64,000 nucleotides of DNA from a virus (IMGVR_UViG_3300024272_000027), one strand, 5' to 3'; shown: positions 5,897-43,415, numbered from the stretch's first letter. Made by a program: numbers and translations. Notes: generated by a model not told the origin, from the letters alone.

Positions 5897-5897
5897 A

Positions 5898-20164: not shown

Positions 20165-20192
20165 CAATAAGTCTTCTTTCAATAAAATAAAA

Positions 20193-20530: not shown

Positions 20531-20618
20531 TGGCGCCGGATGAGGGACTCGAACCCCCACAGACTTGCATCTGAACGGTTTTCAAGACCGCTGCAGTTCC
20601 AATTATGCTTAATCCGGC
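20531..20618 (-). tRNA. tRNA-Ser(UGA), type II
   Basis: Acceptor GCCGGAU/AUCCGGC, anticodon arm GCGGU-CUUGAAA-ACCGU, long variable arm, T-arm GGGGGUUCGAGUCCCUC. Confidence 0.65.
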
Positions 20619-20629
20619 ATATAATTAAA

Positions 20630-21245: not shown

Positions 21246-21255
21246 ATCCGTCTAG

Positions 21256-21332
21256 TGGTACCCACTGAGAGACTCGAACTCCCGACACCTTGGTTCGTAG
21301 CCAAGTGCTCTAATCCACTGAGCTAAGTGGGC
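21256..21332 (-). tRNA. tRNA-Arg(ACG)
   Basis: Anticodon arm CUUGG-CUACGAA-CCAAG, D-arm UAGCUCAGUGGAUUAGAGC. Confidence 0.7.
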
Positions 21333-21341
21333 ATATGTATA

Positions 21342-21416
21342 TGGTACCCTCACTAGGAATCGAACCTAGATAGCGGCCTTAGAAGGACCGAGTTCTATCC
21401 ATTGAACTATGAGGGC
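21342..21416 (-). tRNA. tRNA-Arg(UCU)
   Basis: Anticodon arm CGGUC-CUUCUAA-GGCCG, T-arm UAGGUUCGAUUCCUA. Confidence 0.65.
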
Positions 21417-21604
21417 AAATACTGGAAGCTTCCTACACCGTTTCGGATAGAGGTTTACCAACCCCAATGCATTGTCGCCCGTTTATGCTTTGGTCACTAA
21501 CGGTCCGTTAAATATACCCTTGTTACACCGCTATTTGATTTATAGGCGTTACCCTATGGGAAGTTATCATAACAACAGGACATTCTTCCCCGACTGGTAC
21601 AAGA

Positions 21605-21678
21605 TGTCGGATTCGAACCGCGCTGCATCATCCCAAATGACGCGTGCTACCATTACACTACATCCTGTATATTGATGG
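21605..21678 (-). tRNA. tRNA-Pro(UGG)
   Basis: Anticodon arm CGUCA-UUUGGGA-UGAUG, T-arm GCGCGGUUCGAAUCCG. Confidence 0.65.
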
Positions 21679-21685
21679 AGGAAAG

Positions 21686-21759
21686 TATTGGAGTCGAACC
21701 AATTTAAAGCGGGTTGCAACCGCCTACATAGCCGTCCTGACCACTTTCCTTATGGTGGG
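21686..21759 (-). tRNA. tRNA-Cys(GCA)
   Basis: Acceptor GGAAAGU/ACUUUCC, anticodon arm GGCGG-UUGCAAC-CCGCU. Confidence 0.65.
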
Positions 21760-21762
21760 AAG

Positions 21763-21837
21763 CCAGGGACTTGAACCCTGCCTAAGAGAGCCACAACCTC
21801 TCGTGCTACCGCTACACTAGCAACCCCGTATAAGATG
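21763..21837 (-). tRNA. tRNA-His(GUG) with extra 5' G; acceptor stem carries two U.U mismatches
   Basis: Anticodon arm AGAGG-UUGUGGC-UCUCU; 5' GGGGUUGC vs 3' GCUUCCC. Confidence 0.55.
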
Positions 21838-22034
21838 ATTTACAGATATTCCGGATATATCTCTTTATGAAAGCAAATCAATTCCAACACTTAGCTCTTA
21901 ACTTAAGTTCGTTTTCGTACAACTTAGCAAACAAGTATTAACAAACTTTAAAACGGAAGGTTTTCTGGTACTACCTACAAACCCAACACTGTCGTAGTGG
22001 TACGCATAGCCTTGTACAGAGGGGCTTGACCTCT

Positions 22035-22119
22035 TGGTGGGCAGGGTGGGTGTCGAGCCCACTATTCCCGAAGGAGCCGGATTTACAGTCCGGTGCGTTT
22101 GCCGATTCGCTACCTACCC
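22035..22119 (-). tRNA. tRNA-Tyr(GUA), type II
   Basis: Acceptor GGGUAGG/CCUGCCC, anticodon arm CCGGA-CUGUAAA-UCCGG, long variable arm CUCCUUCGGGAAUAGU. Confidence 0.65.
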
Positions 22120-22487
22120 GTATTATATAAATGACTTCTCCTACTGTTAACCACTTAGGTATGTGCTCCGCTGCTTTCCGTCATTAGCAGGATTGACCTT
22201 TCCTGAGCCTTCTTACATCAACTGGACATCTCTTATAGTTGCAACTATAAATGGTAACACAAGATGGATTCAAATTGAACCTTATATGTTGATTTAACTC
22301 CACTTCTCCGTAATCAATCGGAATACATTATTTCATTATTCACGTGTCTATGTGCACTATAGATAAACTGGCAACGGGCGAGCTATTTAACTTCGAAGTT
22401 TGCAACCCTCTCCGTGAACACTTCTTCCTCCCAGTAATTAGCTGGTTAACGAGCTTATCCCTGTTAACTAGTATAGTGGACCGCGTC

Positions 22488-22564
22488 TGGTACCTGAAAT
22501 TGGAATTGAACCAACGACCTTCGGGGTATGAATCCGATGCTCTTACCTGCTGAGCTATTCAGGC
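22488..22564 (-). tRNA. tRNA-Met(CAU), initiator-like anticodon arm (UCGGA-UUCAUAC-CCCGA)
   Basis: Resembles the bacterial tRNA-fMet anticodon arm CUCGGGCUCAUAACCCGAAG. Confidence 0.6.
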
Positions 22565-22575
22565 ATATTTAATCT

Positions 22576-22746
22576 TTATTGTTTAAAAGGATTCTCACTG
22601 TTAAGCCATTTCTTTAATTCTTCAGTACACTCAGAGCACAACTCATAGTCTGTATCGCCGTAAGGATGAACATAAATCTTTATCTTTGTATCAGGTGCAT
22701 ACTGCAATACTCTTTTACACTTGTCACATATCTTTGCGTGTCCCAT
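22576..22746 (-). CDS. small zinc-ribbon protein (56 aa, not in ORF track)
   Basis: Reads MGHAKICDKCKRVLQYAPDTKIKIYVHPYGDTDYELCSECTEELKKWLNSENPFKQ with two CxxC pairs; sits between tRNAs. Confidence 0.4.
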   Translation of the reverse strand: MGHAKICDKCKRVLQYAPDTKIKIYVHPYGDTDYELCSECTEELKKWLNSENPFKQ

Positions 22747-22767
22747 CTAAAACCTCATAAACAATAT

Positions 22768-22851
22768 TGGTGCCGGTGACAGGACTTGAACCTGCACGCA
22801 CTTGGCACTAGTTCCTAAGACTAGTGTGTCTGCCAATTCCACCACACCGGC
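22768..22851 (-). tRNA. tRNA-Leu(UAG), type II
   Basis: Acceptor GCCGGUG/CACCGGC, anticodon arm CUAGU-CUUAGGA-ACUAG, long variable arm. Confidence 0.7.
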
Positions 22852-22859
22852 ATACTAGT

Positions 22860-22935
22860 TGGTGGGTTGAGTTGGTATCGAACCAACATCCGTGGATTTT
22901 CAGTCCACTGCATAGACCGTCTTTGCTATCAACCC
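22860..22935 (-). tRNA. tRNA-Phe(GAA)
   Basis: Acceptor GGGUUGA/UCAACCC, anticodon arm GUGGA-CUGAAAA-UCCAC. Confidence 0.7.
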
Positions 22936-22937
22936 AT

Positions 22938-23013
22938 TGGTGTGCCTGAGAGGGCTTGAACCTCCGACAACTCGATTAAAAGTCGAGTGCTCTACCAACT
23001 GAGCTACAGGCAC
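22938..23013 (-). tRNA. tRNA-Lys(UUU)
   Basis: Acceptor GUGCCUG/CAGGCAC, anticodon arm CUCGA-CUUUUAA-UCGAG. Confidence 0.7.
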
Positions 23014-23147
23014 ATATATTATGTTAAAAGGAACTAACAAATCGTGCACCACTACACTATCCGAATCGAACGGTTCTTCAACAATGTTCCTAGGATTGTT
23101 GACGCACACCTCGTGCTCCCGAATTGAACGGTCCTTATTTGTTACCT

Positions 23148-23224
23148 TGGTGCAAGTGAGTGGATTCGAACCACTGACCTTCCGCTTATCAGACGGAAAC
23201 TCTAACCAACTGAGCTACACTTGC
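23148..23224 (-). tRNA. tRNA-Ile(GAU)
   Basis: Acceptor GCAAGUG/CACUUGC, anticodon arm UCCGU-CUGAUAA-GCGGA. Confidence 0.7.
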
Positions 23225-23582
23225 ATAAAAACACCATTTCTGACCATATCGCACTTTATATGTGGAGCATCTGAATCCATTAGCAGATAACCTATTCGTT
23301 AGATAATGGTGTTTAGTTAAAGTACTCTCACTTCTCTTTTGGTTTAGGATGTTCAGATTCAATTAGCTGACAACCCTTGTTGAACTTTCAGTTTTGAGTA
23401 CTAGTTTAATGCCAAGTCTACTCTTTCGTATCTTGCCGGACTTTCACCGCTTGGACTTCTTATATATGAGCATTGCATAAGTCACTCATTCAAGGGATGA
23501 ACCAACCCCCACTCATATATCTATCCTAATCAACCTCAAACGGACAGCTGAAATATCAATAGCAACTTTCACGATTAGGATT

Positions 23583-23658
23583 TGGTGCGGAATGTAGGAC
23601 TCGAACCTACAACTTTCTCCTTGTAAGGGAGGCACGCTTCCAGTTGCGTCAATCCCGC
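23583..23658 (-). tRNA. tRNA-Val(UAC)
   Basis: Anticodon loop CUUACAA, T-arm GUAGGUUCGAGUCCUAC. Confidence 0.65.
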
Positions 23659-23662
23659 ATAT

Positions 23663-23739
23663 TGGTGGGAACGACAGGATTCGAACCTGTGACCTGCCGG
23701 TTATGAGCCGGATGCTCTGACCAACTGAGCTAAGTTCCC
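23663..23739 (-). tRNA. tRNA-Met/Ile2(CAU), third CAU species (loop CUCAUAA)
   Basis: Anticodon arm CCGG-CUCAUAA-CCGG; D-arm UAGCUCAGUUGGUCAGAGC. Confidence 0.6.
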
Positions 23740-23773
23740 ATAAAGGGTGTTGCCACCCTAAAAGATATGTAAC

Positions 23774-24103
23774 TTACTTGCCGATGATGTCGAGAATCTT
23801 CTTACGAACAGCTTCGTTATCAGAAATAACTTTTTCAACATTCGCCTTGTTCTCTTCTGCAAACTTCTTAAGCTTATCAAGGTCAGCAACGGATTTTGTT
23901 AACCCTTTGTTAACGGTCTCAAGCTTATTAGCAGTCTGACGGAACACGCTTAATGCTGAGTCTTTCTGAGTTGAAAAAGTGTCAATGTCGCCAAGAATTT
24001 TTTCCTTTGCAGAAGCAATAACTTCTTCTGTTGTAGGAGGAGTTACAATAGCAACTTGTTTCTTTTTCTTGAAAATGTTTTTCATACTAATACATCCTTT
24101 CAA
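23774..24103 (-). CDS. small coiled-coil protein (ORF-track TTG start; probable ATG start near 24085)
   Basis: ORF track; K/E-rich heptad-like sequence. Confidence 0.4.
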   Translation of the reverse strand: MKGCISMKNIFKKKKQVAIVTPPTTEEVIASAKEKILGDIDTFSTQKDSALSVFRQTANKLETVNKGLTKSVADLDKLKKFAEENKANVEKVISDNEAVRKKILDIIGK

Positions 24104-24120
24104 CTTATCTTTCTAAACAT

Positions 24121-24154
24121 ATTATATAATAAACTCATCAAGAGTTCAACTAAC
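24121..24154 (-). promoter_or_regulatory. sigma70-like promoter (TTGAAC - 17 - TATAAT)
   Basis: Minus read TAGTTGAACTCTTGATGAGTTTATTATATAAT. Confidence 0.45.
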
Positions 24155-24156
24155 TT

Positions 24157-24230
24157 TGGCATACCCTCAAAGATTTGAACTTTGACTAATGGTTTTGGAG
24201 ACCATCGTGCTACCGTTACACCAAGGATAT
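24157..24230 (-). tRNA. tRNA-Trp(CCA)
   Basis: Acceptor AUAUCCU/AGGGUAU (A1-U72), anticodon arm AUGGU-CUCCAAA-ACCAU. Confidence 0.6.
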
Positions 24231-24408
24231 ATGGTGCCAAGTGTTCCCTCTACGGTTGGCAACACTAGCCGTAAGCCACCACTATCAAATTTGACTTGCT
24301 CTATACTTTCAAGAGTCATAGCGTCCTGTGTTGTTTATGCTCTGCACCAAGCGTCCTCAGTGTTGAATGAAGTTCAAAACGCTTCAGGAATCTAAAAACC
24401 ATAGCACT

Positions 24409-24494
24409 TGGCATCTTTGGTAGGGCTCGAACCTACAAGAAGGACTGCGCTGTCCTCAGCCACCTTTTTACGGCAGCCGCGTTTGCCAATTTCG
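24409..24494 (-). tRNA. aberrant type-II tRNA-like gene (Tyr/Leu-like scaffold, A-rich anticodon loop GUAAAAA; specificity unclear, possibly pseudogene)
   Basis: Perfect 7-bp acceptor AUCUUUG/CAAAGAU + G + CCA, D-arm GCGAAAUUGGCAAACGC (near-identical to the tRNA-Tyr D-arm), stem GCUGCC/GGUGGC, long variable arm AGGACAGCGCAGUCCU, T-arm GUAGGUUCGAGCCCUAC. Confidence 0.4.
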
Positions 24495-24881
24495 CCACAA
24501 AGATAAATGGGCGTAACATCAAGAATCGAACTTGAATATCTTCATCTATGTAACTTGTACTTAATTACAATCATTGATGGTCTTTTACCTGGGATTCGGT
24601 TGCTTTACCATTAAGCTATATCACGTTATAAACTGATTTATTTGACTTTAGTGCTGCAGACACCATCCATCATATCGGACATAAATCAAATCCGGCTAGG
24701 CAGCTTGGTTTGTAGTTTCGCATCTACTTTCCTTTCGTGAAATTATCGGAGTGCCTTTGCCGTCTATCCATATAAAACCGAGTCATACGTTTCAGGTTCG
24801 TGTGACTATCACCATACCCACCTATATACGCTGTGGTTCGACTCATTCGTGCGATTTTTAAATATCGGGAAGAGTGTCCCT

Positions 24882-24955
24882 TGGCAGTCCCGACTGGGTT
24901 CGAACCAATAACAACGCAGTCAAAGTGCGTTGTGTTACCATTACACTACGGGACT
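24882..24955 (-). tRNA. tRNA-Gln(UUG)
   Basis: Acceptor AGUCCCG/CGGGACU, anticodon arm ACGCA-CUUUGAC-UGCGU. Confidence 0.7.
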
Positions 24956-25060
24956 ATGTAGTCTTTACTGTTGAAAGACGAAAGTCAACGGTCTTTGCCA
25001 GTTGTCATCTATTTTGCTCCTTGACACATCTAAATAGATAAAAATGTGTCTCAAACGGAC

Positions 25061-25135
25061 TGGTGACGCTACCCGGAGTCGAACCGGGCTTACGAGAATG
25101 AAAATCTCGTGTACTAACCGATATACGATAGCGCC
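25061..25135 (-). tRNA. tRNA-Glu(UUC)
   Basis: Anticodon arm CGAGA-UUUUCAU-UCUCG, T-arm CCCGGUUCGACUCCGGG. Confidence 0.7.
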
Positions 25136-25138
25136 ATT

Positions 25139-25217
25139 TGGTGGACCTTGTGGGAATCGAACCCACCTGATTTCCTCTTTGCAGGAGAGGTGACCACCCC
25201 TTGCAGTCCCAAGGCCC
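25139..25217 (-). tRNA. tRNA-Ala(UGC)
   Basis: Anticodon arm CCUCU-CCUGCAA-AGAGG, T-arm GGUGGGUUCGAUUCCCAC; enlarged D-loop. Confidence 0.6.
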
Positions 25218-25281
25218 TTATGTAAGGAAGGTTGTGTAAGTTTAGGGTTACGGTCGCGACGAACTCTTACAAACTCGACCT

Positions 25282-25368
25282 TGGTGGGGGAGAAGGGACT
25301 TGAACCCTCACGACCAAACGGCCAACGGATTTTAAGTCCGTTGCGTCTGCCTATTCCGCCACTCCCCC
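25282..25368 (-). tRNA. tRNA-Leu(UAA), type II
   Basis: Perfect acceptor GGGGGAG/CUCCCCC, anticodon arm AACGGA-CUUAAAA-UCCGUU, long variable arm. Confidence 0.7.
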
Positions 25369-29600: not shown

Positions 29601-29634
29601 ATTATATAGTAAGATAGTAAGTTATCCAACTTTA
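29601..29634 (-). promoter_or_regulatory. sigma70-like promoter (TTGGAT - 17 - TATAAT)
   Basis: Minus read AGTTGGATAACTTACTATCTTACTATATAAT. Confidence 0.45.
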
Positions 29635-31032
29635 TGCATAACTTACTTCTTTACCAATTTCACGAAACTGTACAAATGTTGGGAACTGTAAACTTTCCTT
29701 GCCTGTTGATTTATCTTTTGTGATTTCTTTATACTTAACTTCTGCAATACGTCCGAGATATTTATCTTGATTATTCCATATCTCAGTTCTCAAAGCGTCT
29801 GTAAATCCACCAACGCCTACTCGATTACCTTTATAATCAACAACGATGCTACCAAGTGTACCTTCGTTCTTACCGTTGCCCTCTTCAAAACCGATAATCT
29901 TCAAGTCCATAGTGTAAAAAGTTTTAACTTTAAGTAATCCGCTATGTCGTTTACACTTATAAGTCACATCTCGTGCAAGCATACAGCCCTCTTTACCTTG
30001 AGCATCCATTTCAGCAAGACACGTTTCAACCATTGAGTGGTCATTACCCGCATACAAGAAGTCTACAACATCGACGTGTTCTAGCCCCACCTTCGCAATA
30101 TACTCTAAAACTTGGCACATTGTTTTCATTCGCTCTTGGTAGGTAAGTTTACTTTCACCGTTTTTAAACTCAGAATAAGGCAATAAATCGAATATTACAA
30201 AAGACAATGCAGTCTTATCTTCTTCGTCAGAATTAAGTAATCCTGTTCCTATGCGGAAGTTTTCGTTATCTGGAATACCGTCAACATTCTTACGGATTAT
30301 TTCACCATCAAATACCATATTAACATCAAACAAACTTCTTATACGATTTAAGTCTTTTATAATGTGGTCAACATTGCTAAATTCACGTCCTTGGCGGCTT
30401 ACTATTTTACCGTTTATATATGTGGCTCTATTACCATTTAATTTTTCTGATAAACAAATCCATTCGCCATCTTTTAACTTTGTGTCCTGCAATTTGTTTG
30501 CTTGTTGAACTTCGTGTACTTCAATTAAACCGAGTATAGCGGTATTGGCTAACTTAGTATCAATTCCAAGTTTAAGTGTCTTTATAATAATTTTCTTAAG
30601 CAATTCATTAAACTCTACCGCGTCTGCTAATGAATTGCCTCCGTTGAATTCTTCTTTGTAGAATCCTGTAATAGATGCAAGATAAACTTGACATACTGCA
30701 ATATCAACATCACTGCCAGTATTGTGCACTTTTAAGTAGCGAATGACATCAATAATAGTTCTACAGTCACCTGTAACTGTCGGATAATTTGCAAGTGTTT
30801 TATTTATCTTTGCTTTACTGATACCCGTAACAACTGTTTTGTCTAATAAGAATTGTAAGAACTCAAGTATAATATCATTGCTCTTCCAACGCTTAAGAAT
30901 TGCTTTCTTTTCGGTTGTTGAAGTTGTACTTTGTATTTCAGCACAAAACTTCATAATGTCATACTCAGCCTTCATTCTTGGAAGTGCTGCCAAATCCGCC
31001 TTCTCGTATTCCATCTGTATTGTCTCCTTCAA
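29632..31032 (-). CDS. ATP-dependent polynucleotide ligase (DNA ligase-like; RNA-ligase function not excluded)
   Basis: Nucleotidyltransferase motifs: I SEKLNGNR (K-x-N/D-G), III VFDGEII, IV EGCMLAR, V LLKVK; 466 aa. Confidence 0.6.
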   Translation of the reverse strand: MKETIQMEYEKADLAALPRMKAEYDIMKFCAEIQSTTSTTEKKAILKRWKSNDIILEFLQFLLDKTVVTGISKAKINKTLANYPTVTGDCRTIIDVIRYLKVHNTGSDVDIAVCQVYLASITGFYKEEFNGGNSLADAVEFNELLKKIIIKTLKLGIDTKLANTAILGLIEVHEVQQANKLQDTKLKDGEWICLSEKLNGNRATYINGKIVSRQGREFSNVDHIIKDLNRIRSLFDVNMVFDGEIIRKNVDGIPDNENFRIGTGLLNSDEEDKTALSFVIFDLLPYSEFKNGESKLTYQERMKTMCQVLEYIAKVGLEHVDVVDFLYAGNDHSMVETCLAEMDAQGKEGCMLARDVTYKCKRHSGLLKVKTFYTMDLKIIGFEEGNGKNEGTLGSIVVDYKGNRVGVGGFTDALRTEIWNNQDKYLGRIAEVKYKEITKDKSTGKESLQFPTFVQFREIGKEVSYA

Positions 31033-31522: not shown

Positions 31523-32473
31523 TTATTCTGCGTCTTTATAAGAAGGTAGAATCATTGAAACATCTTCGCCTGCTACAACTTCAGGTAGTTTACCGTCCCA
31601 CTTGTCAAGATACATCTTCTGTAAAATCTTATCAGTAAGTGACTTTTCAAGTAATGCACTAGCTTTAGCTTCGCCTTCTGCTGCAAGAATTTTTGCCTCT
31701 GCTTCAGCCTTTGCCTTTGCTACTTTAGCTTCATTTTCATATTCTGCTTTAAGTGCATTCTGTTCAGCAATCATCTTTTCTTCAACAGCAGTTTCAAACT
31801 GTTCACTAAATTCAATATCTGTAATTGCTACATTTGTTACAGTTACGAAGAACTTTGTACCTAATGCGTCAGTAACTGCTTTTGCTGCTTCGGAGGACAT
31901 TGCTTCACGCTTTTCAATAATACCCATCGCAGTGTGCTTTGATAAAACTGTCTTAACTTTATCTCTTACAGTAGGTGTGATACGAGCTTCTAATGTTTTA
32001 AGATTACCATACTGTGTAGTAATTTCCTTAATCTTATCCGGCATAATCTGATACTGGAATTTAATATTAAGAGTCATTTGCTGAGCATCGCTTGAATATG
32101 CTATGTCATCAATATTAACTTCCTGTACTTTTGTGCTATACTTGGTATGTGCATTAAGAACCCAGAAATCAAAATATGTGCCTGCAGTTCTTGTTTCTTT
32201 AATCTTACCAAGAGACTTAACAACTGCAACTTCACTCTGGTCAACTGTGTAGAATGAAGGTGAAACAAATATTACACATACAATCATAAGAATAACGAGT
32301 AGAAGTGCAACTGCTGCATTTTTATCACGTTTCTTATTACGTGCTTTTGCTTCATCTGATAAGTCTGAAGACCATCCTGCCTTTTCTTTTGCGCTTTCTT
32401 GTTTCATACCGTAGATAAGTGCTGCTGCACCAATTCCGACAAATACAAGTGCTGTTATAAAACCAATAACCAT
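31523..32473 (-). CDS. SPFH / band-7 (prohibitin-stomatin family) membrane protein
   Basis: N-terminal TM helices, central SPFH-like region, Ala/Glu/Lys-rich coiled coil (AEYENEAKVAKAKAEAEAKILAAEGEAKA). Confidence 0.55.
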   Translation of the reverse strand: MVIGFITALVFVGIGAAALIYGMKQESAKEKAGWSSDLSDEAKARNKKRDKNAAVALLLVILMIVCVIFVSPSFYTVDQSEVAVVKSLGKIKETRTAGTYFDFWVLNAHTKYSTKVQEVNIDDIAYSSDAQQMTLNIKFQYQIMPDKIKEITTQYGNLKTLEARITPTVRDKVKTVLSKHTAMGIIEKREAMSSEAAKAVTDALGTKFFVTVTNVAITDIEFSEQFETAVEEKMIAEQNALKAEYENEAKVAKAKAEAEAKILAAEGEAKASALLEKSLTDKILQKMYLDKWDGKLPEVVAGEDVSMILPSYKDAE

Positions 32474-32492: not shown

Positions 32493-33629
32493 TTATGAGT
32501 GCATCTTTAATAAATACTTATTTGATACGTTTTTAAAACTTTCAACACCGTCAAGACTTCTATAAACAAAGCCTTCACGCATAACTTTTGGGTTTACAAC
32601 AGAATTACCATCAGCTAATGCTTTAAGTTCTTCCATTGTGTCGGGCATTTTAACTTTTCCGATAATAGGAACCCATTTCATACCCCATCCTTCAACAATA
32701 TCCTTTCCTTCGAAAGAACTATGTCGTCCAAATTCTGAGGTCTTGAAATTGAATACATACAAATCATCTTCCGCAAGTTCAAGCGGATTTCCTTGTACTG
32801 AACCTACGCCTTCACCTTGAATGCATACCCACTTATAATCTTTATGAAGTTCTAAGTAGTTTTTCAGATGCTCTTCAATGTTGTACTTGAATGCTAAATC
32901 CCAATAAATATTGTGGTCGTGATAAGTCTTTTGATTTTCATCTGCTTGTCTCACATTACGTGAACAAACATAGAACTCAAACTTATTCTTTCCCTTTCGC
33001 TCAAGGGCGTATGTACAAGAAGTTCCATCTAATTTCTCAGTGCAAAGATAAGTCTTTCCGTCACCAATGCGCCAAGGTTGATTTTCAACTCTTTCTTCAT
33101 CGGTCTTTGAAATAAATGCTGGGAATCCTCTCGGATTATCTTTCTTCTTTCCGAAGAATAAGAACATCAACTTTCGTCCCCAAGCCCTCTTCATAAGCCA
33201 CTTTGCCCAAGGCTTCTTGAACAACTTCTTATGTCGAGCCTTCATTGAGTCATACTTTGCATTAGGATTAACATTCTTTCTTGAATTGTCTTCGGCTTCA
33301 GCATAAACTACTTTCAAGATGTCAGTAACATCAGTGCCTACGTCTTTGCCTTCTAATTCAGGGAATGACGATATTGGCATAATCAAACCTTGTGACAACA
33401 CTTTGCACATCTTTAAGGTTTTAATCTTATAATGCCGTTTTTCAAGGAACGCAAATCGCTCGTCCGTTTCCGGAACCTTACTGTCAACCTCGAAGTATAC
33501 AACTTTGTCGCCTACTTGCATTGCATCGCCTTTGTTGATAATACACCACCAACCACCGACACGTCCGTGCTCAACTCGGTCATATCCTTCAATAGGTTTG
33601 ATTTCGTCAAGAGTAGTTATGTATACCAA
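32493..33629 (-). CDS. RNA ligase, Rnl1-like
   Basis: 378 aa (T4 Rnl1 is 374 aa); adenylyltransferase motif I CTEKLDGTS (KxDG); co-occurrence with a large tRNA set, kinase and phosphatase genes. Confidence 0.55.
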   Translation of the reverse strand: MVYITTLDEIKPIEGYDRVEHGRVGGWWCIINKGDAMQVGDKVVYFEVDSKVPETDERFAFLEKRHYKIKTLKMCKVLSQGLIMPISSFPELEGKDVGTDVTDILKVVYAEAEDNSRKNVNPNAKYDSMKARHKKLFKKPWAKWLMKRAWGRKLMFLFFGKKKDNPRGFPAFISKTDEERVENQPWRIGDGKTYLCTEKLDGTSCTYALERKGKNKFEFYVCSRNVRQADENQKTYHDHNIYWDLAFKYNIEEHLKNYLELHKDYKWVCIQGEGVGSVQGNPLELAEDDLYVFNFKTSEFGRHSSFEGKDIVEGWGMKWVPIIGKVKMPDTMEELKALADGNSVVNPKVMREGFVYRSLDGVESFKNVSNKYLLKMHS

Positions 33630-33720
33630 AGCTCTCTTGCCGTCAATTATCAGTCTAACTCACTCCTTCCGTTAACTTGATATCTATATTCAATAAACCT
33701 TTAAAGGTTTAATTGCTAAC

Positions 33721-34362
33721 TTATGTATGAGGTATTCCGTCCCATACCATATTCGCTGTTGTCCAGATATAATTACAGTGTGGAATATTTTTATCTAAAA
33801 CTTGCATAAATTCAAGTGTTTCCTGAATGGCTCTTCGGCACATCTTACCGGGTTTAGCTCCACTGTTGAACACTCTCTTACGTTCGCATAAGAAATGAAT
33901 AGCATCCTCAACTGAGATAAATTTTACAATGTTTTCAGGATTATTTACATCTGTGCCTACTATTGAAGGAATAGGTTCATTATAAATACTGCCCTTTGCT
34001 TTGTTGCATTCAACGCACATTGTCTGTAGATTATCCACAACATCCAGCCCGCCTAATTTCTTAGGACGTATATGGTCCTTTGTCATCAGTGTGCCGTCAT
34101 CAGCATATAGGTTAAAGTGTCTACGTGTCTCTGCACTTAAACCATCTTTATCTTCTTCAAGTTTAAAATATGTACCTTCTTTACCGCAACAAGCACACTT
34201 TGTGCCCTTCTGATAAAAAGTAGCATATCTTAAAGACTGCTGATAAACATCAAATCCATTTACTTTAATACTAGTCCTATTCTTCTTGTTCACGGATTGA
34301 ATGTTAAGTGCTTCATCACCTAAGATAGTAAACACTACATCCACGGGAAAAATATTTTGCAT
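33721..34362 (-). CDS. HNH endonuclease
   Basis: CACCGKEG...HIRPKKLGGLDVVDNLQTMCVECNKAKG, the classic HNH His-Asn-Cys motif. Confidence 0.65.
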   Translation of the reverse strand: MQNIFPVDVVFTILGDEALNIQSVNKKNRTSIKVNGFDVYQQSLRYATFYQKGTKCACCGKEGTYFKLEEDKDGLSAETRRHFNLYADDGTLMTKDHIRPKKLGGLDVVDNLQTMCVECNKAKGSIYNEPIPSIVGTDVNNPENIVKFISVEDAIHFLCERKRVFNSGAKPGKMCRRAIQETLEFMQVLDKNIPHCNYIWTTANMVWDGIPHT

Positions 34363-35607: not shown

Positions 35608-35631
35608 CAAAAAAAGAATAGCATTTTACTG

Positions 35632-36174
35632 CTATTCCTCATATAATGTAATTTGTTTATTCTGGATTGTTTTCTTTACATCAATTACTCTTTGATTAGA
35701 ACTACCACAATACTTCTGCATCAGGTCTCGCTGTGACTCTATATAAGGACCATCAACAACAACATCGCATAAACTAAGTAATTGATTAATATTGTTATGC
35801 TTTCTATGTTCCGGAGCAATACCACGTATCTTATATAAGAATTGGTCTAGTGTTAGAGTTAATCCTGTATATAACCAGATTGTTTTTTCTGGGAATCTGT
35901 TTCGTATGTATTGACATAATGCAATACATTCAAGAATATTAGATTCTTCTAAAGGATGTCCGCCACTCAATGTAATCCCATCAACGTGTTCGTATTTCAA
36001 TTCATCAACTATCTGTTGTACAGCGGATTGATTGAAAGTATAACCACCATTAAAGTCCCAAGTGGATTCATTATGGCATCCTTGACAATGTATAGAGCAA
36101 CCTTGACACCATAACACAACGCGTATGCCAGGCCCATTTGCTACAGAGTTCTTCTCTATCTTTGCATATCTCAT
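35632..36174 (-). CDS. nrdG: anaerobic ribonucleotide reductase activating protein NrdG
   Basis: Cys cluster CQGCSIHCQGCHN near the N-terminus (radical-SAM type) directly downstream of nrdD. Confidence 0.7.
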   Translation of the reverse strand: MRYAKIEKNSVANGPGIRVVLWCQGCSIHCQGCHNESTWDFNGGYTFNQSAVQQIVDELKYEHVDGITLSGGHPLEESNILECIALCQYIRNRFPEKTIWLYTGLTLTLDQFLYKIRGIAPEHRKHNNINQLLSLCDVVVDGPYIESQRDLMQKYCGSSNQRVIDVKKTIQNKQITLYEE

Positions 36175-36734
36175 TCAATACTCTTCTCCCTTAATCTATG
36201 AAATAAAATACCTCCAAATGCATTACCAAGTATGACTATAACTAAGTAACTCAATGTTTGAAGATTAAAAGTTCTTGCGGCTATCACAAGACATACTCGA
36301 GCTATGGAATGATTAAATCCGCATATAACGAATAGTGTAACAGCTAATATAACTAATGCAAAATCTGATTTATTGTAGCCCTCAACGGCAACATATATAA
36401 GTATGTTACACATTATAGAAGTGACAACAATAGTGACTATATCTTTGTTCAACGCAAGGGTTAACTGTTCTTTAGCTGCCTCAACAGGACAGAGAAATAA
36501 AATCGAGCATCCTATAATGTTTCCTAGTAACACTGTTAAGATATAAGGAAGTTCCTTATAACTTTTGATATAAGGAACTTTGCCTGTAAATAAATGCAAC
36601 TTACAATCCAATATTGCGAGTAATCCGACAGAGAACAATACAGCTCCGACAATACTTGGATTGTGTAGATATCCAAGAGTACTTATAGCTATCATTACAC
36701 CCGCTAATATAGCAGATTCTAACACTCTTTTCAT
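36171..36734 (-). CDS. formate/nitrite transporter (FNT)-like integral membrane protein (short form)
   Basis: 187 aa, about 6 TM; FNT signature-like motifs KLHLFTG (cf. [DES]-L-F-T-G), SIMCNILIYVAV (cf. xxCNxxVCLA), GFNHSIA (cf. GFEHSxAN) and LGNAFGG (cf. LGNxxGG). Confidence 0.45.
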   Translation of the reverse strand: MKRVLESAILAGVMIAISTLGYLHNPSIVGAVLFSVGLLAILDCKLHLFTGKVPYIKSYKELPYILTVLLGNIIGCSILFLCPVEAAKEQLTLALNKDIVTIVVTSIMCNILIYVAVEGYNKSDFALVILAVTLFVICGFNHSIARVCLVIAARTFNLQTLSYLVIVILGNAFGGILFHRLREKSIE

Positions 36735-36745
36735 TTAATCACCCA

Positions 36746-38992
36746 TTATTCGTCACCTAGATGTAATACTCTTTCTTTGATTTCTTGAGTTCTTCCTTGA
36801 TTCCAGAATTGAGTACCAATATATCCACAAGTTCTTCTTGCTACATTTAATTTGCTTTGGTCAGTATTACCACAGTTAGGGCACTCCCAGTACAACTTGT
36901 TATTCTCGTCTTCTTTGATAACTATCTCACCATCGAACCCACATTCTTGACAATAGTCACTCTTGCAGTTCAATTCGGCATACATTATGTTATCATATAT
37001 AAATTTAATTACTGATAACACAGCCGGAATATTTTTCTGTAAATCAGGAACTTCAACATAACTAATCGCTCCGCCAGGAGATAGTTTTTGGAACTTAGCT
37101 TCTGTTGCTAACTTTGTAAAGGCATCAATAGGTTCTGTAACGTGAATGTGATAACTATTTGTTATGTAATTCTTATCGGTTACGCCCTCAATAACTCCAT
37201 AGTGGTCTTGACAAGCTTTAGCAAACTTATAAGTAACTGATTCAATAGGCGTCCCGTAAACTGAATAATCAATCTTTTCAGCAGTTTTCCACTCTTTACA
37301 TTTATCGTTCATATACTGCATTATCTTAAGTCCGATATGTTCACCTTCAGGTTCTGTTAGTTTACTGCCTGTAAGAGCATAAACACATTCCCACAATCCT
37401 GCATATCCTAACGAAATTGTTGAATAGCCGTTATGTAGTAAATCGTGAATATTTTCACCTTTTGCTAATCTTGCGATAGCTCCGTGTTGCCAATGGATTG
37501 GTGAAGTATCACTATATGTATTAGCAAGTCTTTCGTGTCTAATCTGTAATGCTTTATGACATAATTCTAATCTTGCATCAAATATCTCCCAGAATTTTTC
37601 TAAATCTTTATCTGCCGCAAGGCCTACATCAACTAAGTTAATAGTAACAACGCCTTGATTAAATCTACCATAGTATTTAGGGTCAACTTTAATACCGCTT
37701 TTTGATTTATCCTCTTCAGTAGTCCAAGGAGTTAAGAATGAGCGACATCCCATACAAGGATAACAATCACCATCGCCATTTTTGTTTATCTTGTACTCCT
37801 TCATTTTCTTTTCAGATATGTAATCAGGGACTAATCTTTTAGCTGTGCACTTAGCAGCTAATTCAGTTAAATACCAATACTTAGTATCTTCTTTGCAATT
37901 GTCCTCTTCTAATACATATAGAAGTTTAGGGAATGCAGGAGTAATCCAAACACCCTTTTCGTTCTTTACGCCTTCAATACGCTGACGAAGGACTTCTTCA
38001 ATAACTAAAGCAAGGTCTACTTTTTCCTGTTCGCTCTTTGCTTCATTTAGATACATATTAACTGATAAGAAGGGTGCTTGACCGTTAGTTGTCATAAGAG
38101 TTACAACTTGATACTGAATAGTCTGAATTCCTCGCTTTATTTCGTCAGCAACTCGCTGTTCAGTAATGTCATCAATAGCTGACTTCATCTTATCCGAAAA
38201 TTCTACAAGTTCTCCTACGTGACAAGATTCCCAAGCAAACTTCTGCTCGGCTTCGACTTGCTTACGAATTTTCTGACGACTTATATCGACAAACGGTGCA
38301 AGATGTGCTAAACTGATTGTCTGTCCACCGTATTGATTACTTGCTACTTGAGCAATAATCTGTGTTGCAATATTACAAGCAGTGCTGAATGAATGTGGTT
38401 TTTCAATCAATGTGCCACTAATAACAGTACCATTCTGTAACATATCTTCAAGGTTTATCAAACAACAATTAAATATATGTTGGGCGAAATAATCTGCATC
38501 GTGAAAATGAATAATTCCTTGATTATGTGCTTCTACTATATCATCCGACAATAGAATACGATTAGTAATATCTTTACTAACCTCACCTGCCATATAATCC
38601 CTCTGTGTAGATGCTATGACAGGATTCTTGTTGCTATTCTCTTGCTTTATTTCTTCATTTGACTCTTCAAGTAATGCAATTATCTTGTCATCAACAGTAC
38701 TTGAAGTTCTTGCAAGAGTCCTTTTATATCGATATGTAATGTACTCTTTTGCCACTGCGTATGCATTATATTCAATTAGTTTATTCTCAATCTGGTCTTG
38801 AATATACTCTACACTACGAGTGCGTTTTGAATTCACATAAGCCTCTGCAATTTCTTCAGCAATTAACTTAATAAGTCGCTTACCTATGCGTTGACTCTTA
38901 ACTGTGATAGAATCGTTTGCCTTCACTAAGGCGTTTTCAATTTTTGAGGAGTCAAATTCAACTTCGGCTCCGTTTCGCTTAATAATTTTCAT
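36746..38992 (-). CDS. nrdD: anaerobic (class III) ribonucleoside-triphosphate reductase NrdD
   Basis: 748 aa; C-terminal glycyl-radical motif RRTCGYIG; Cys-rich zinc site CQECGFDGE...CPNCGN. Confidence 0.85.
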   Translation of the reverse strand: MKIIKRNGAEVEFDSSKIENALVKANDSITVKSQRIGKRLIKLIAEEIAEAYVNSKRTRSVEYIQDQIENKLIEYNAYAVAKEYITYRYKRTLARTSSTVDDKIIALLEESNEEIKQENSNKNPVIASTQRDYMAGEVSKDITNRILLSDDIVEAHNQGIIHFHDADYFAQHIFNCCLINLEDMLQNGTVISGTLIEKPHSFSTACNIATQIIAQVASNQYGGQTISLAHLAPFVDISRQKIRKQVEAEQKFAWESCHVGELVEFSDKMKSAIDDITEQRVADEIKRGIQTIQYQVVTLMTTNGQAPFLSVNMYLNEAKSEQEKVDLALVIEEVLRQRIEGVKNEKGVWITPAFPKLLYVLEEDNCKEDTKYWYLTELAAKCTAKRLVPDYISEKKMKEYKINKNGDGDCYPCMGCRSFLTPWTTEEDKSKSGIKVDPKYYGRFNQGVVTINLVDVGLAADKDLEKFWEIFDARLELCHKALQIRHERLANTYSDTSPIHWQHGAIARLAKGENIHDLLHNGYSTISLGYAGLWECVYALTGSKLTEPEGEHIGLKIMQYMNDKCKEWKTAEKIDYSVYGTPIESVTYKFAKACQDHYGVIEGVTDKNYITNSYHIHVTEPIDAFTKLATEAKFQKLSPGGAISYVEVPDLQKNIPAVLSVIKFIYDNIMYAELNCKSDYCQECGFDGEIVIKEDENNKLYWECPNCGNTDQSKLNVARRTCGYIGTQFWNQGRTQEIKERVLHLGDE

Positions 38993-39062
38993 CTACTCTA
39001 TCTCCGTTATTTTAATGATGTATAATTAAATACAATGTGAATAGTAACGGAATAGGCGGATT

Positions 39063-39871: not shown

Positions 39872-40218
39872 AAGAATGTCACCAAATCCTTTATACGTTC
39901 TTGTGCTTCCTCGATTGTAATTAAAACGGCTTGCTGTGCAAGGGTTTTACCATTTAACCAACTATCTATTATACGCCTTATCTTGCCCTCGTTAAAATCA
40001 AATTCGCTATAGGTATAACTAACCTCATTAGGAATAGTAACGTCATTATCAATGTATCGAGGACCGTATTGTATAATCTTTGTTCGACCGCCTTCAGTCT
40101 TTACTATCATTATATATTCAGTATATAACATAGTTGTAGCACTGATACAGCAGTTCCCTATATCGTCAACTTCTAAAAACCCAGTTGCTTGCATCTGGTA
40201 TAGATAATCAAACTGCAT
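39868..40218 (-). CDS. hypothetical protein
   Basis: ORF track. Confidence 0.45.
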   Translation of the reverse strand: MQFDYLYQMQATGFLEVDDIGNCCISATTMLYTEYIMIVKTEGGRTKIIQYGPRYIDNDVTIPNEVSYTYSEFDFNEGKIRRIIDSWLNGKTLAQQAVLITIEEAQERIKDLVTFL

Positions 40219-40844
40219 TATTCAATTACCTCATAATCAAGTACAAGTAGCTCGTGCGCTACTCTGAACTCAATTTCACCGTTTTCGAGTACTTTCTTAT
40301 GTTCACGTGAATGTAATTCACCTTTTAATCTTAATTGAGTATTAACGGACAACTTAGCGAGCTCCTTAGCTAGTTTATTCCAAGCTATGCAAGGAATATA
40401 ACTGTTAAGTCTTTTTGAGCCATCATTCGACATCAAGTTGTTAGCAAGAATAAAATGAACATTTTGTTTCCCATTCTTATTTGTACGTAATTCATTTATC
40501 TTGCATACGCGTCCATCAATATTAACAGTGTTAACAGTAGAAGTTATATTGTCATCTACATCACTAGGAATATCAAAATAAGTAAAAACATATATAATTA
40601 CTTTGTTTTTATCTTCAGACACTTTATATGAATAAGAACGAACATTACCTTTTAATGTAACTTCATCGTTTTCTTTATACTTATTACTAAATGTTTTAAA
40701 TCTCAAGTTTATAACATCTTCGGCACCATTAGCTCTAGGCACAATAAGTTTAGCCTTACTAAAACTGATGCTATCGATGGAATGAGACAATTCAATATCT
40801 TTTATAATGCCTTTTAATTGCACATCGTTCACATTTTCCACCAC
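40218..40844 (-). CDS. hypothetical protein (possibly virion-associated)
   Basis: ORF track. Confidence 0.45.
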   Translation of the reverse strand: MVENVNDVQLKGIIKDIELSHSIDSISFSKAKLIVPRANGAEDVINLRFKTFSNKYKENDEVTLKGNVRSYSYKVSEDKNKVIIYVFTYFDIPSDVDDNITSTVNTVNIDGRVCKINELRTNKNGKQNVHFILANNLMSNDGSKRLNSYIPCIAWNKLAKELAKLSVNTQLRLKGELHSREHKKVLENGEIEFRVAHELLVLDYEVIE

Positions 40845-40847: not shown

Positions 40848-43415
40848 TTACTTACAAATTTTCCAGCTACCACCTGACCATACATAAGGCTGAGCAATTG
40901 TCCAATTAGGTTTACCATAATCTGTTGATTTGTTTATAAATACAGTTCCATACTTCCATCCACTGTCATATATTCTAACCACACCGGTACACTGATAAGG
41001 TCCCGCAGTAACGGAAGAGGTTACATTGTTTGCAGCTTTAGCACTTACCCTAATATCAAACGGTTTTGCTGGAGGAATCTTTGAGACAGTTTTAGTAGCG
41101 GACTTGCCGTCAGACGCTACTATCATTCTACTTTGAGATAAGGGTGAAGTAGAACCGTCTTTCATAACAATACTGCAGTACCAATCAGTCATCGGTTGCT
41201 GTGCAGTAGCTCTAAAAGAACAAATGTTTCCTCCTGTCTGCACGTCTACTATCTGGATAGCACTTTCTGTAGTATCACAAGTAACAGTTGCTTTGTTTTT
41301 AAGAGCATTACAATCTAACCTCCACACCTCAACTTCGTAAGATGAATTACTATTTGCACGTAAAGGCATATCTGTAACTTGTAGGAGTTTACTTGCAACA
41401 GTAGGAGGACACTTGAGTGACCCTTCTGCTGACTGTACTGTTGATGCACCTTTAAAAGACCATCCACAGTTGTAATTAGTTTTTAACGTCATAGTACCTA
41501 GTCTATTAGCTGTAGGATTTAGAGTGAATGTGTTAATCTGTGGAATACTGGAGTCACACTCTGCACTATAGGTGCTTTTAAGGATTTCATTTACTACACG
41601 TTTTATATGTAACTTAAATGTTCCTTTATCATTGGTTGTACTTTTATCAAACTGTATAACAGGCTTATATGTAGTCAGTGCAATGCACTCATTAGACCAC
41701 GTGTTTTTCCCATTAGTGCTGTAACAGGAACCATCAGGACCTTCAAGTTGCCAACGAAACTTACACCAAGTCCAAAATTCGAGTTGAACTTTACAACGAG
41801 CAACAGGATTTATAATAAATCCTTCTTTAGGTGCGTTTGTTGGTCCGTGTCGTACTGCAGGTCTTTCTGCATAATATTCTGTGTTCTGTGATTCTGATAT
41901 CAACGGACAATCGCTACGAGTAACTGTTAGGGTGTAGTATTTTCCATTAGTTATATTGCGGTCATCTGCAGTTACTGAAATATTTTCAACTGTGATTGTT
42001 TGAGTGCTACCACTGGCTTTCTTGGTGAAAGACCCTTTATAAACTGTCGCACTCTTACCATTATCTCCAACAGTACTTAGGACATAAGAACACGGATAGT
42101 TGTATACTCTAAATTGAAGCGTTGCTTTAGTACCTGGGTTACTCGTAGCTTTCAACGATAGTGTTTCTATTAAAGGAATAGCTGTGTCACACTCAACCGC
42201 TGAAGAAGTTCCTGTAGTATGACGTGTGATGTCTCGTGCACGAACTGTTACCACTGGAGCAACAACAGACACTTTTATATTTTTTACTTCTATTTTCTTG
42301 TTGTTTGAAGTGCTAACATTGACCCAGTTACCACTGTCAATCTTGTATTGCCAAGTATCACAAGGCACATCAGAAGTAGCAACAAAACTAATATTTCTAT
42401 AAGTAAATAGACTTTTTGTAGGTGTCAAAGTAATTTTTGGACAGCTCATATCCACGGATTGAACAGAAGACGTGCCTACAATTCCATTAGACACTTTAGT
42501 AGCCCTTACTGAAAAAGTATGTTTCCCTGCGGATAATGCACTCGTTGTATATGTGGTCTGCTTAGTGCTTACTGTTTTAAAAGTGGTCCAAGAGCCTGTA
42601 TCTATCTTTACTTGCCAATCTTTACAACTGTCTGCAGAACTAGCAGTTAAGGTAACTTTGCCTCCGGATGCTAGTGCAGCTGATAATTGAATAGTAGGCT
42701 TGACGCAGTCAAAAGTGATTGTGCTTGACTGTCCACTAACGCCATTTGACGATTTAACTGCTTTTAATCTAATAGTGGGAGAACTCGTTGAAACAGTAAC
42801 TGTTTGAGTTCCTCCTTTACCAGACAATGTACTAGTTTTCCAAGCTCCTCCATTTAAACTATACTGCCAAGAACCGCAAGTAACATTAGCAGACCCTTTA
42901 AATGTCACACTATTTGTTGTACAAGAACTCTTAGTTGCTGTTATTGTAGGAGCAGTTCTGTCATTAGGCCCACCGGAGTCCGATTGTACTGACGCTGCAA
43001 TATTGTGAGTAGCTGACACATTAACTGAAATGTATTTACCTGCTGATAACCATTTTACGCTACTGTTATAACATTTCACAGTTAAGTTAACAGCAGGGCA
43101 TTTTCCGCTACTATCTCCATTAACTGTATGTGTAAGTCCTACTGTCTGATATCCGGACTTAGGCAGCCATCCTGAATACGTATTGCTACCGGATGAAGGT
43201 ATTGTACCTGTTTTCTTAGACGACCCTATACTTATTTCCCAGTTTGTACGGAAATTCCATTTACCTCCGTGAGCACGAATTCCTGTTACCTTTATGGTGT
43301 AAGTGTTATTTAATTCATTACGTGTCGCGGAATACTGTACCTCTCCATAGTACTTATATGTGTCAGATGAAGTATTCCATAACTGTTGAACAGATGTTTT
43401 ACAAGTTTTTGACAC
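40848..43415 (-). CDS. large Ser/Thr-rich protein with tandem Ig-like repeats (putative fibre / adhesin / receptor-binding protein)
   Basis: 855 aa; at least four about 90-aa repeats sharing C-x-x-W-Q-x-K-I-D-(S/T)-G-x-W; no enzymatic motifs. Confidence 0.5.
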   Translation of the reverse strand: MSKTCKTSVQQLWNTSSDTYKYYGEVQYSATRNELNNTYTIKVTGIRAHGGKWNFRTNWEISIGSSKKTGTIPSSGSNTYSGWLPKSGYQTVGLTHTVNGDSSGKCPAVNLTVKCYNSSVKWLSAGKYISVNVSATHNIAASVQSDSGGPNDRTAPTITATKSSCTTNSVTFKGSANVTCGSWQYSLNGGAWKTSTLSGKGGTQTVTVSTSSPTIRLKAVKSSNGVSGQSSTITFDCVKPTIQLSAALASGGKVTLTASSADSCKDWQVKIDTGSWTTFKTVSTKQTTYTTSALSAGKHTFSVRATKVSNGIVGTSSVQSVDMSCPKITLTPTKSLFTYRNISFVATSDVPCDTWQYKIDSGNWVNVSTSNNKKIEVKNIKVSVVAPVVTVRARDITRHTTGTSSAVECDTAIPLIETLSLKATSNPGTKATLQFRVYNYPCSYVLSTVGDNGKSATVYKGSFTKKASGSTQTITVENISVTADDRNITNGKYYTLTVTRSDCPLISESQNTEYYAERPAVRHGPTNAPKEGFIINPVARCKVQLEFWTWCKFRWQLEGPDGSCYSTNGKNTWSNECIALTTYKPVIQFDKSTTNDKGTFKLHIKRVVNEILKSTYSAECDSSIPQINTFTLNPTANRLGTMTLKTNYNCGWSFKGASTVQSAEGSLKCPPTVASKLLQVTDMPLRANSNSSYEVEVWRLDCNALKNKATVTCDTTESAIQIVDVQTGGNICSFRATAQQPMTDWYCSIVMKDGSTSPLSQSRMIVASDGKSATKTVSKIPPAKPFDIRVSAKAANNVTSSVTAGPYQCTGVVRIYDSGWKYGTVFINKSTDYGKPNWTIAQPYVWSGGSWKICK

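Follow-up and report, generated by a model that had tools for sequence, protein, structure and literature searches.

The window discussed here, a stretch of 64,000 nucleotides of viral DNA (IMGVR_UViG_3300024272_000027), carries three consecutive genes on its minus strand: nrdD (36746..38992), a short open reading frame (ORF; 36171..36734) and nrdG (35632..36174). The product of nrdD is a class III anaerobic ribonucleoside-triphosphate reductase of 748 amino acids and of the formate type (Pfam NRDD, 626 bits, with ATP-cone and Gly_radical), and that of nrdG is its radical-SAM activase, 180 amino acids long (Pfam Fer4_12, 143 bits, and Radical_SAM). The initial annotation had placed between them a 187-residue membrane protein, proposed to be a channel of the formate/nitrite transporter (FNT) family, and this ORF, which has an ATG start, is present as claimed. 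It had also been described as overlapping both the nrdD stop and the nrdG start. The overlap exists on the nrdG side, where the FNT stop and the nrdG start share a 4-nt ATGA (36171-36174), an arrangement that suggests translational coupling. On the other side, the nrdD stop (36746-36748) and the FNT start codon (36732-36734) are instead separated by an 11-nt spacer (36735..36745, minus strand), in which a Shine-Dalgarno-like GGGTGA precedes the ATG by 5 nt, and a longer FNT reading frame is blocked by an in-frame stop. In two relatives (L003 and L015), the gene calls do make the FNT overlap nrdD. A terminator-like hairpin detected by a consensus scan (35613..35640, minus strand; an 11-pair stem followed by TTTTTGTTTAG) begins in the last nrdG codons and likely marks the 3' end of the nrdD-FNT-nrdG transcription unit. 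Upstream of nrdD, a 70-nt intergenic region (38993..39062, minus strand) contains a GGAGAT ribosome-binding site and presumably the operon promoter; in a promoter scan, promoter-like sites were no commoner than in shuffled controls. The Shine-Dalgarno-like sequence before the FNT gene, its ATGA overlap with nrdG and the hairpin after nrdG make the three genes look like one transcription unit.

The family assignment of the central ORF is well founded. All four FNT motifs highlighted in the initial annotation are found: KLHLFTG (residues 45-51), SIMCNILIYVAV (106-117), GFNHSIA (139-145) and LGNAFGG (169-175). The hidden Markov model (HMM) of PF01226 (Form_Nir_trans) gives the protein 62.1 bits (gathering score 34.6; E = 6.6e-17), and profile positions 20-234 of 240 are covered by its residues 3-179. 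The predicted topology is the six-helix FNT fold with broken second and fifth transmembrane (TM) helices, and no competing family was matched. From the N-terminus to the C-terminus, it comprises TM1 (2-24), TM2a (28-43), an omega-loop (44-48), TM2b (49-55), TM3 (59-81), a short helix (85-95), TM4 (99-121), TM5a (125-138), an S-loop (139-142), TM5b (143-153) and TM6 (158-186). The AlphaFold2 model, predicted as a monomer with 47 homologues, displays the six TM helices with a mean predicted local confidence (pLDDT) of 96.4 and a predicted template-modeling score (pTM) of 0.91. Foldseek returns nothing but FNTs among its top 50 PDB matches (HSC, FocA, NirC, PfFNT and LciA), and all 187 residues superpose on solved FNTs. 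A single-sequence phmmer search of the PDB reaches only E ~0.1, to FocA, and the family profile is needed to reach 1e-22; with this profile, HSC, FocA, LciA, NirC and PfFNT are matched at E-values from 1e-22 to 8e-15. The qualification as a minimal or divergent FNT is apt, as the protein has 187 residues compared to 285 in FocA while the whole of it superposes on the FNT core. Relative to FocA, what is missing is the N-terminal helix (~30 residues), the C-terminal tail, 5-10 residues from each of four loops and ~25 from the loop that joins TM5b to TM6. From its sequence and its model, the protein is therefore best described as a predicted complete FNT core and nothing more. The best match in PHROGs (E 0.037) designates no meaningful family, which places the protein outside the described phage protein families.

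FocA's pore-lining residues are retained. Using FocA numbering (3KCU) and the residue lists of PMC5525234, the central constriction residues F75, F202 and A212 correspond to F34, F135 and A145, and the cytoplasmic slit residues L79, L89, T91 and V175 to L38, L48, Thr50 and I113. The alignment further pairs F90 with F49, N172 with N110, G206 with G139, the structural asparagines N121 and N262 with N72 and N171, and A171 with C109, Cys being the commonest residue there among FNTs. Thr50, located in the omega-loop (codon 36585..36587, minus strand), is the equivalent of Thr91, which is essential for translocation in FocA (PMC9380403, PMC12559229). His142, located in the S-loop (codon 36309..36311, minus strand), is the central pore histidine and the equivalent of His209, which FocA needs for pH-dependent uptake, its H209N variant being efflux-only (PMC12559229); the roles of the FNT pore residues are documented in PMC5525234, PMC9380403 and PMC12559229. 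In a set of 120 distinct short FNTs, taken from both phage and cellular loci, F75, L89, T91, N121, F202, G206 and H209 are invariant, while A212 and N262 are kept in 119.

The FNT gene is under purifying selection. Compared to the closest relative of the operon (L001), whose FNT is 89% identical, NrdD 99% and NrdG 97%, the ratio of non-synonymous to synonymous substitutions (dN/dS) is 0.20 for the FNT and 0.03 for both NrdD and NrdG. None of the 20 FNT substitutions between the two affects a mapped pore position, and the majority are conservative. Nucleotide identity to this relative is uneven, ranging from 0.875 to 0.98 per 200 nt along 35632-38992, which is compatible with weaker constraint or with local recombination in the FNT gene. 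DNA near-identical to the window was not found among deposited phages.

The window protein belongs to a sub-clade with a triple change around the vestibule: K156 is replaced by Ala94, E208 by Asn141 and N213 by Arg146 (codon 36297..36299, minus strand, from the alignment), so that the arginine co-occurs with the alanine at the vestibule lysine site. Among the 21 phage-clade clusters, the nine without Lys156 all possess an arginine at 213 (eight) or 208 (one), compared to none of the 12 that have Lys156 (Fisher p = 3e-6). We read this pattern as a probable relocation, and not a loss, of the vestibule positive charge, and as a further sign of a maintained working anion pore. In FocA, the K156A variant loses formate export but keeps hypophosphite import (PMC9380403). 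Taking the alanine at this position as the mark of an import-only channel was nevertheless down-weighted, since the loss of the lysine is always paired with an arginine at 213 or 208; as the charge appears relocated, such a property is not claimed for the phage protein.

The neighboring NrdD displays the signature of the formate-type enzymes (NrdD1). Enzymes of this type use formate as reductant, while NrdD2 and NrdD3 use thioredoxin or NrdH and possess a third active-site cysteine (PMC9176816, PMC4493059). In the formate-dependent NrdD of P. copri, this third position, on β-strand 6, is occupied by Asn435 (PMC11226230), which aligns with N311 of T4 NrdD. The window NrdD harbors M414-G-C416 in the finger loop (MGCRSFL), C176/C177 on the first strand (NCC), Asn445 (GRFNQG) at the β-6 site, RRTCGY (G723) as glycyl-radical motif and, at the C-terminus, CxxC...CxxC, and by these features it qualifies as a formate-type enzyme under the published criteria (PMC11226230, PMC9176816, PMC4493059, PMC4390871). 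Its closest PDB relatives are 9d3x (E 1e-120), T4 NrdD 1h78 (E 2e-101) and P. copri NrdD 8p23. All FNT-linked NrdDs that are readable at the diagnostic positions exhibit MGCR and GR(F/G)N, with Asn replacing the third Cys. To note, the P. copri-like NrdDs beside FNTs in four loci (L015, L018, L025 and L029) read GRGNICPV, with a Cys two residues past the β-6 Asn; it would lie on the same strand face as this Asn, and its role as a third Cys is conjectural. In another relative (L013; ERZ28614238 scaffold_39, 2342-6004), nrdD is called in three pieces with a LAGLIDADG-type ORF between them (3437-4252), which looks like an invasion by an intron- or intein-type homing endonuclease. One formate is oxidized to CO2 per deoxyribonucleoside triphosphate (dNTP) produced (PMC4390871). 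A phage genome of ~159 kb copied many times at this rate would represent a substantial formate sink. The same stoichiometry, one formate oxidized per dNTP, was reportedly observed by Mulliez et al. in 1995.

On sequence grounds, the 187-residue protein is not a FocA orthologue. FocA's N-terminal helix (residues 1-30), which binds PflB and gates the pore (PMC12559229, PMC5600444), has no counterpart, as TM1 begins at residue 2 and alignments with FocA begin at FocA residue 32-33. Several FocA-specific residues are not kept (S92 is replaced by G51, T93 by K52, L167 by T105, E208 by N141 and N254 by Y163), and of the FocA-subfamily list (PMC5525234, Table 4) only F90, N172, F202, A212 and L79 agree. 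The YfdC-α/β signature (F202 replaced by I/V/M/L, A212 by V and S92 by E) is not found either, the corresponding residues being F135, A145 and G51, and the basic residue 167 of NirC and HSC, at least 95% conserved in these, is replaced by Thr105. No nir or asr genes were seen at the gene-annotated phage loci. The locus displays no pflB association, its neighbors being nrdD and nrdG. Pyruvate formate-lyase is about 750 amino acids long; the three ORFs of at least 600 residues in the window are NrdD, an 855-residue ORF without Pfam match and a 623-residue ORF lying outside the Pfam scan. The family profile is at similar distances from HSC (1e-22), FocA (1e-22 to 3e-19), LciA (4e-19) and NirC (3e-18). 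These near-equal distances, together with the failed FocA, YfdC, NirC and HSC signatures, lead us to conclude that the protein belongs to a putative separate short FNT subfamily that is none of the eight described in PMC5525234. That survey dropped sequences with missing or short TM helices (PMC5525234), and the short group may be among those.

The short form is the norm across a family of at least 703 clusters. An exhaustive HMMER scan of 50%-identity clusters returned 1,626 at E <= 1e-3 and 703 at E <= 1e-10, and nearly all of the best 150 are 176-250 amino acids long. The relatives in GTDB, at most 40% identical, are distributed among Clostridia (Ruminococcus, Oscillospiraceae, Lachnospiraceae), Acholeplasmataceae, Treponema, Bacteroidales, Fibrobacter and Methanomassiliicoccales archaea, and come mostly from gut and rumen samples. 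They are auto-annotated as "formate/nitrite transporter family protein" and, as far as we could find, no member has been characterized experimentally.

The association of the FNT with nrdD and nrdG was analyzed in the 5-6 kb around each FNT gene, linkage being scored within 5 kb. Metagenomic relatives at 89%, 51%, 48%, 48% and 46% identity, on contigs of up to 219 kb, keep the nrdD-FNT-nrdG order although the genes that flank it differ, and conservation of this arrangement extends to relatives of 43-48% identity. This conservation, together with the Pfam E-value and the highly confident structure model, places the finding far beyond chance. A scan of IMG/VR yielded 42 viral FNT loci, about half of them with NrdD and/or NrdG within 5 kb, in the orders nrdD-FNT-nrdG, nrdD-nrdG-FNT and FNT-nrdG; phage FNTs scored as unlinked may still share a genome with an nrdD located beyond the flanks. 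In contrast, nrdD or nrdG is nearby in a single one of the 80 best cellular loci. Counted as distinct FNT sequences, 18 of 39 are nrd-linked in phages versus 1 of 81 in cells (p = 9e-10). Linkage of these FNTs to nrd genes is phage-specific and recurrent. The lone linked cellular locus (L081, 3083-5525, nrdD-nrdG-FNT) lies on a contig of the uncultured Tenericutes UMGS1402 and may belong to a prophage or to a phage contig that was binned wrongly. That the operon was inherited from bacteria was considered and rejected, because nrdDG is found near only one of these 80 cellular loci.

Among 50,697 deposited phage records, 2,604 encode an NrdD homologue (E <= 1e-50) and three encode any FNT, none of which is nrd-linked. 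FNT matches in a Staphylococcus phage and in MT839063 were discarded as linked cases, since nrd genes were not found nearby. The closest cultured NrdD relatives are those of Enterocloster phages, in which nrdG directly follows nrdD; the "hypothetical protein" annotated after nrdD in Enterocloster phage CB457P2, once suspected to be a hidden FNT, is NrdG. The similarity of NrdD and the sample origins point to a gut or rumen host of Clostridia type.

In a rough neighbor-joining tree, which has long branches and no support values, nrd-linked phage FNTs are spread over at least eight positions, interspersed with unlinked sequences of phages and with cellular ones, a scatter that would fit repeated capture or re-association. 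Sturdier than the tree is the observation that within the clade of the window FNT, where the nrdD-FNT-nrdG order is maintained, the adjoining NrdDs fall into two classes that are ~29% identical, one T4/S. thermophilus-like (MGCRSFL) and one P. copri-like (TMGCRT). The channel gene hence accompanies nrdG whichever of the reductases lies alongside. The nrd-linked phage copies also differ in the pore: the FocA-like Asn172 is found in 10 of 18 versus 7 of 80 (p = 3e-5), and Ile or Val at 175 in 15 of 18, whereas cellular copies mostly have Gly172 and Met175. This enrichment is a weak hint of specialization of the nrd-linked copies. The neighbors of unlinked phage FNTs, identified by eye, are metallophosphoesterase-like, HAD-like, vWA-like and DNA polymerase III alpha-like and give no substrate clue. 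On the cellular side, about five short FNTs (L105, L118, L134, L135 and similar, in metagenome-assembled genomes of Ruminococcaceae/Oscillospiraceae) are found inside purine operons, beside genes for a PurF-like amidotransferase, a PurN-type formyltransferase, IMP cyclohydrolase and AICAR transformylase. These cases weakly hint at a tie between the family and one-carbon and nucleotide metabolism, independently of the phage linkage.

We consider it probable that the window harbors a minimal but complete FNT channel, encoded by a large phage of gut or rumen anaerobes in one operon with formate-dependent NrdD and its activase NrdG and supplying the reductase with formate or formic acid. The phage FNT would assemble as a pentamer in the host membrane and conduct formate/formic acid; consumption by NrdD would then pull formate inward from formate-containing anaerobic surroundings, or keep the host supply from limiting, so that phage DNA synthesis would not be limited by reductant. 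With the N-terminal helix absent, such a channel would be constitutively available and independent of PflB, and this absence argues against a FocA-like gating by a glycyl-radical enzyme partner. The retained central histidine fits competence for uptake, as FocA H209N is efflux-only. Supply of formate to the class III ribonucleotide reductase as the putative role of these FNTs is strongly backed by comparative evidence, because the linkage is phage-specific, occurs in several gene orders and with two NrdD classes, and because the readable NrdDs are of the formate type.

Several observations weigh against this interpretation. Formate as substrate, as well as the direction of flux, is inferred from the genomic context alone and not from subfamily-specific residues. 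The constrictions FFHA and LLT-I, which occur alike in channels for formate, for nitrite and for hydrosulfide, do not tell these apart (PMC5525234), and at the subfamily-specific positions the protein (Gly at 92, Lys at 93, Asn at 208, Arg at 213 and Tyr at 254) fits no described subfamily. The score against the FocA equivalog model TIGR04060 is 32.9 for a cut-off of 290.1, that against PRK10805 is 16.5 for 440, and the generic fnt model TIGR00790 gives 33.5 for 232.3. FNT channels are bidirectional and would allow flux in either direction. About half of the phage FNT loci are devoid of any nrd gene within 5 kb, and the ~2,600 deposited phages with NrdD but no FNT indicate that the channel is not generally required. 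Finally, the neighbors of the cellular short FNTs are heterogeneous, and the family as a whole may therefore not be dedicated to formate.

The same observations leave some room for an FNT conducting another anion or weak acid, such as nitrite, hydrosulfide, lactate/acetate or bicarbonate, whose adjacency to nrdDG would reflect a shared anaerobic early expression or the protection of NrdD/NrdG, for example by removal of nitrite or sulfide harmful to their Fe-S clusters. The pore residues FFHA and LLT(I) are also those of FocA, FdhC, NirC-β/γ and HSC, the family profile is about equidistant from HSC, FocA, LciA and NirC, and the cellular neighborhoods are mixed; moreover, the changes of G86 to Lys, of N254 to Tyr and, in most cellular members, of N172 to Gly recall the uncharacterized YfdC groups. 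We nonetheless judge this explanation unlikely. The only recurrent phage neighbors are a formate-consuming NrdD, of at least two classes and in several gene orders, and its activase, whereas genes of anion metabolism, nir and asr included, were not seen beside the phage copies. The basic residue 167 of NirC and HSC is absent (Thr105), the nrd-linked phage copies are enriched for the FocA-like Asn172 and Ile/Val175, and the NrdD product, CO2, needs no channel. A different possibility is a formate channel whose main role would not be import but the venting or buffering of formate and protons for control of the cytoplasmic pH in the infected cell, or else, by analogy with the FocA-PflB complex, a membrane docking platform tethering NrdD/NrdG near a host formate source. 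FocA binds the glycyl-radical enzymes PflB and TdcE, which controls translocation (PMC5600444, PMC12559229); NrdD is itself a glycyl-radical enzyme, the tight translational coupling with nrdG would favor co-assembly, and FNT channels conduct in both directions. Yet the helix through which FocA contacts PflB is wholly absent, TM1 starting at residue 2, and E. coli NrdD shares none of the PflB residues that cross-link to FocA, the binding being specific to PflB/TdcE (PMC5600444). It would make little sense for the channel to export the reductant that the adjacent enzyme uses, and the central histidine required for uptake is invariant. Both the missing helix and the pathway logic lower the likelihood of docking or efflux, and we hold such a role to be quite improbable.

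A protein devoid of any transport role, either a hitch-hiking or decaying host fragment or a membrane protein co-opted for lysis timing or superinfection exclusion, is very improbable. Its length, ~100 residues below that of FocA, its dN/dS of 0.20, about 6-fold that of the flanking genes, and the scarcity of FNT matches in deposited phages (3 of 50,697 records, none nrd-linked) would be in line with such a reading. However, none of the six helices or of the two half-helix loops is missing, the full 187-residue chain can be superposed on solved FNTs, 120 homologues show no variation at the pore residues, the lost vestibule charge appears compensated elsewhere, and dN/dS is far below 1. The short form is also normal in this family, which counts at least 703 clusters, its linkage to nrdDG was kept or re-created repeatedly, and the gene lies within a replication and nucleotide-metabolism module (with genes for the single-stranded DNA-binding protein, SSB, a dUTPase and ligases) and not within a lysis module.

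The FNT family itself is known, and proteins similar to that of the window have already been auto-annotated, for instance a 191-aa Siphoviridae protein in BFVD, or under JGI names. In contrast, we found no publication that mentions phages pairing an FNT with nrdD/nrdG, or that treats an FNT of a virus as an auxiliary gene; what we rate as new here is a short FNT subfamily in a phage-specific functional context. A broader proposition, on which we are evenly divided, is that gut and rumen phages recruited FNTs without the N-terminal helix beside formate-type nrd genes, probably several times, importing environmental formate for their own dNTP synthesis. Should formate supply be the role of these channels, the virus would control the supply of reductant and not the enzyme alone, and formate availability would be a phage-managed replication bottleneck in anoxic habitats. 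The window protein would then be the first virus-encoded FNT with an assigned physiological role, and its gene a novel type of auxiliary metabolic gene, encoding a channel that delivers the stoichiometric reductant of a phage enzyme. Formate supply could limit viral DNA synthesis in the anaerobic gut and rumen, tying phage replication to the formate cross-feeding of the community. These naturally minimal FNTs, of 178-195 residues, without the N-terminal gating and PflB-binding helix and some with a relocated vestibule lysine, also bear on the questions of gating, directionality and the role of K156 and of the N-terminus in the FNT field, and they draw attention to a large subfamily of short FNTs, comprising at least 703 clusters at 50% identity and harbored by gut anaerobes as well as methanogenic archaea.

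The surroundings of the operon comprise further genes of DNA and RNA metabolism. The regions 32493-34362 and 29632-31032 (minus strand) encode an RNA ligase with a PHA02142 OB domain (378 amino acids), an HNH endonuclease (213 amino acids) and a DNA-ligase OB-domain protein (466 amino acids), and the SSB gene is located at 40218-40844; the proximity of these genes places the operon in a module for replication and nucleotide metabolism. A SPFH/Band 7 membrane-scaffold protein of 316 amino acids (31523-32473, minus strand), encoded a few genes downstream of nrdG at a position kept in two relatives (L001 and L015), constitutes a second membrane-associated protein in the nrd module. Directly upstream of the SSB gene, the 855-residue ORF without Pfam match (40848-43415, minus strand) is internally repetitive and Ser/Thr-rich, and looks like tandem immunoglobulin-like modules. 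An array of 26 tRNAs (11250-25368, minus strand), on the same strand as all large ORFs, covers 19 of 20 specificities and includes three tRNA-Met; it fits a large phage, the contig of a relative being 159 kb long, with its own translation supply.

Compared to known systems, the window shares with phages T4 and Enterocloster CB457P2 (53% NrdD identity) a phage-encoded formate-type class III ribonucleotide reductase and its activase in a nucleotide-metabolism module. Unlike these two phages and the ~2,600 deposited phage records, which are devoid of FNT, it possesses a channel gene between nrdD and nrdG, coupled to the latter. The cellular short FNTs resemble the window protein in size (~180-220 amino acids) and in their invariant pore residues, with 30-40% identity to it, but mostly exhibit Gly172 and Met175 where it has Asn172 and Ile175. 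The phage FNT is much shorter than HSC/FNT3 of C. difficile (3TDO), NirC (4FC4), PfFNT (6VQQ) and LciA (9V2A), and it differs from NirC and HSC by the absence of a basic residue at 167 and of linkage to nir or asr genes. With FocA, the formate channel of E. coli, Salmonella and Vibrio (3KCU, 3KLY, 3Q7K, 9G49), it has in common the constriction F75/F202/H209/A212 and the slit L79/L89/T91, with V175 replaced by Ile, as well as F90, N172, N121 and N262, and its gene likewise adjoins that of a formate-handling glycyl-radical enzyme. It departs from FocA by its length (187 versus 285 amino acids), the lack of the N-terminal amphipathic helix, the shortening of all loops, most pronounced between TM5b and TM6, and a shorter C-terminus. 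The partners also differ: PflB, the partner of FocA, produces formate, whereas NrdD, the partner of the phage FNT, consumes it.

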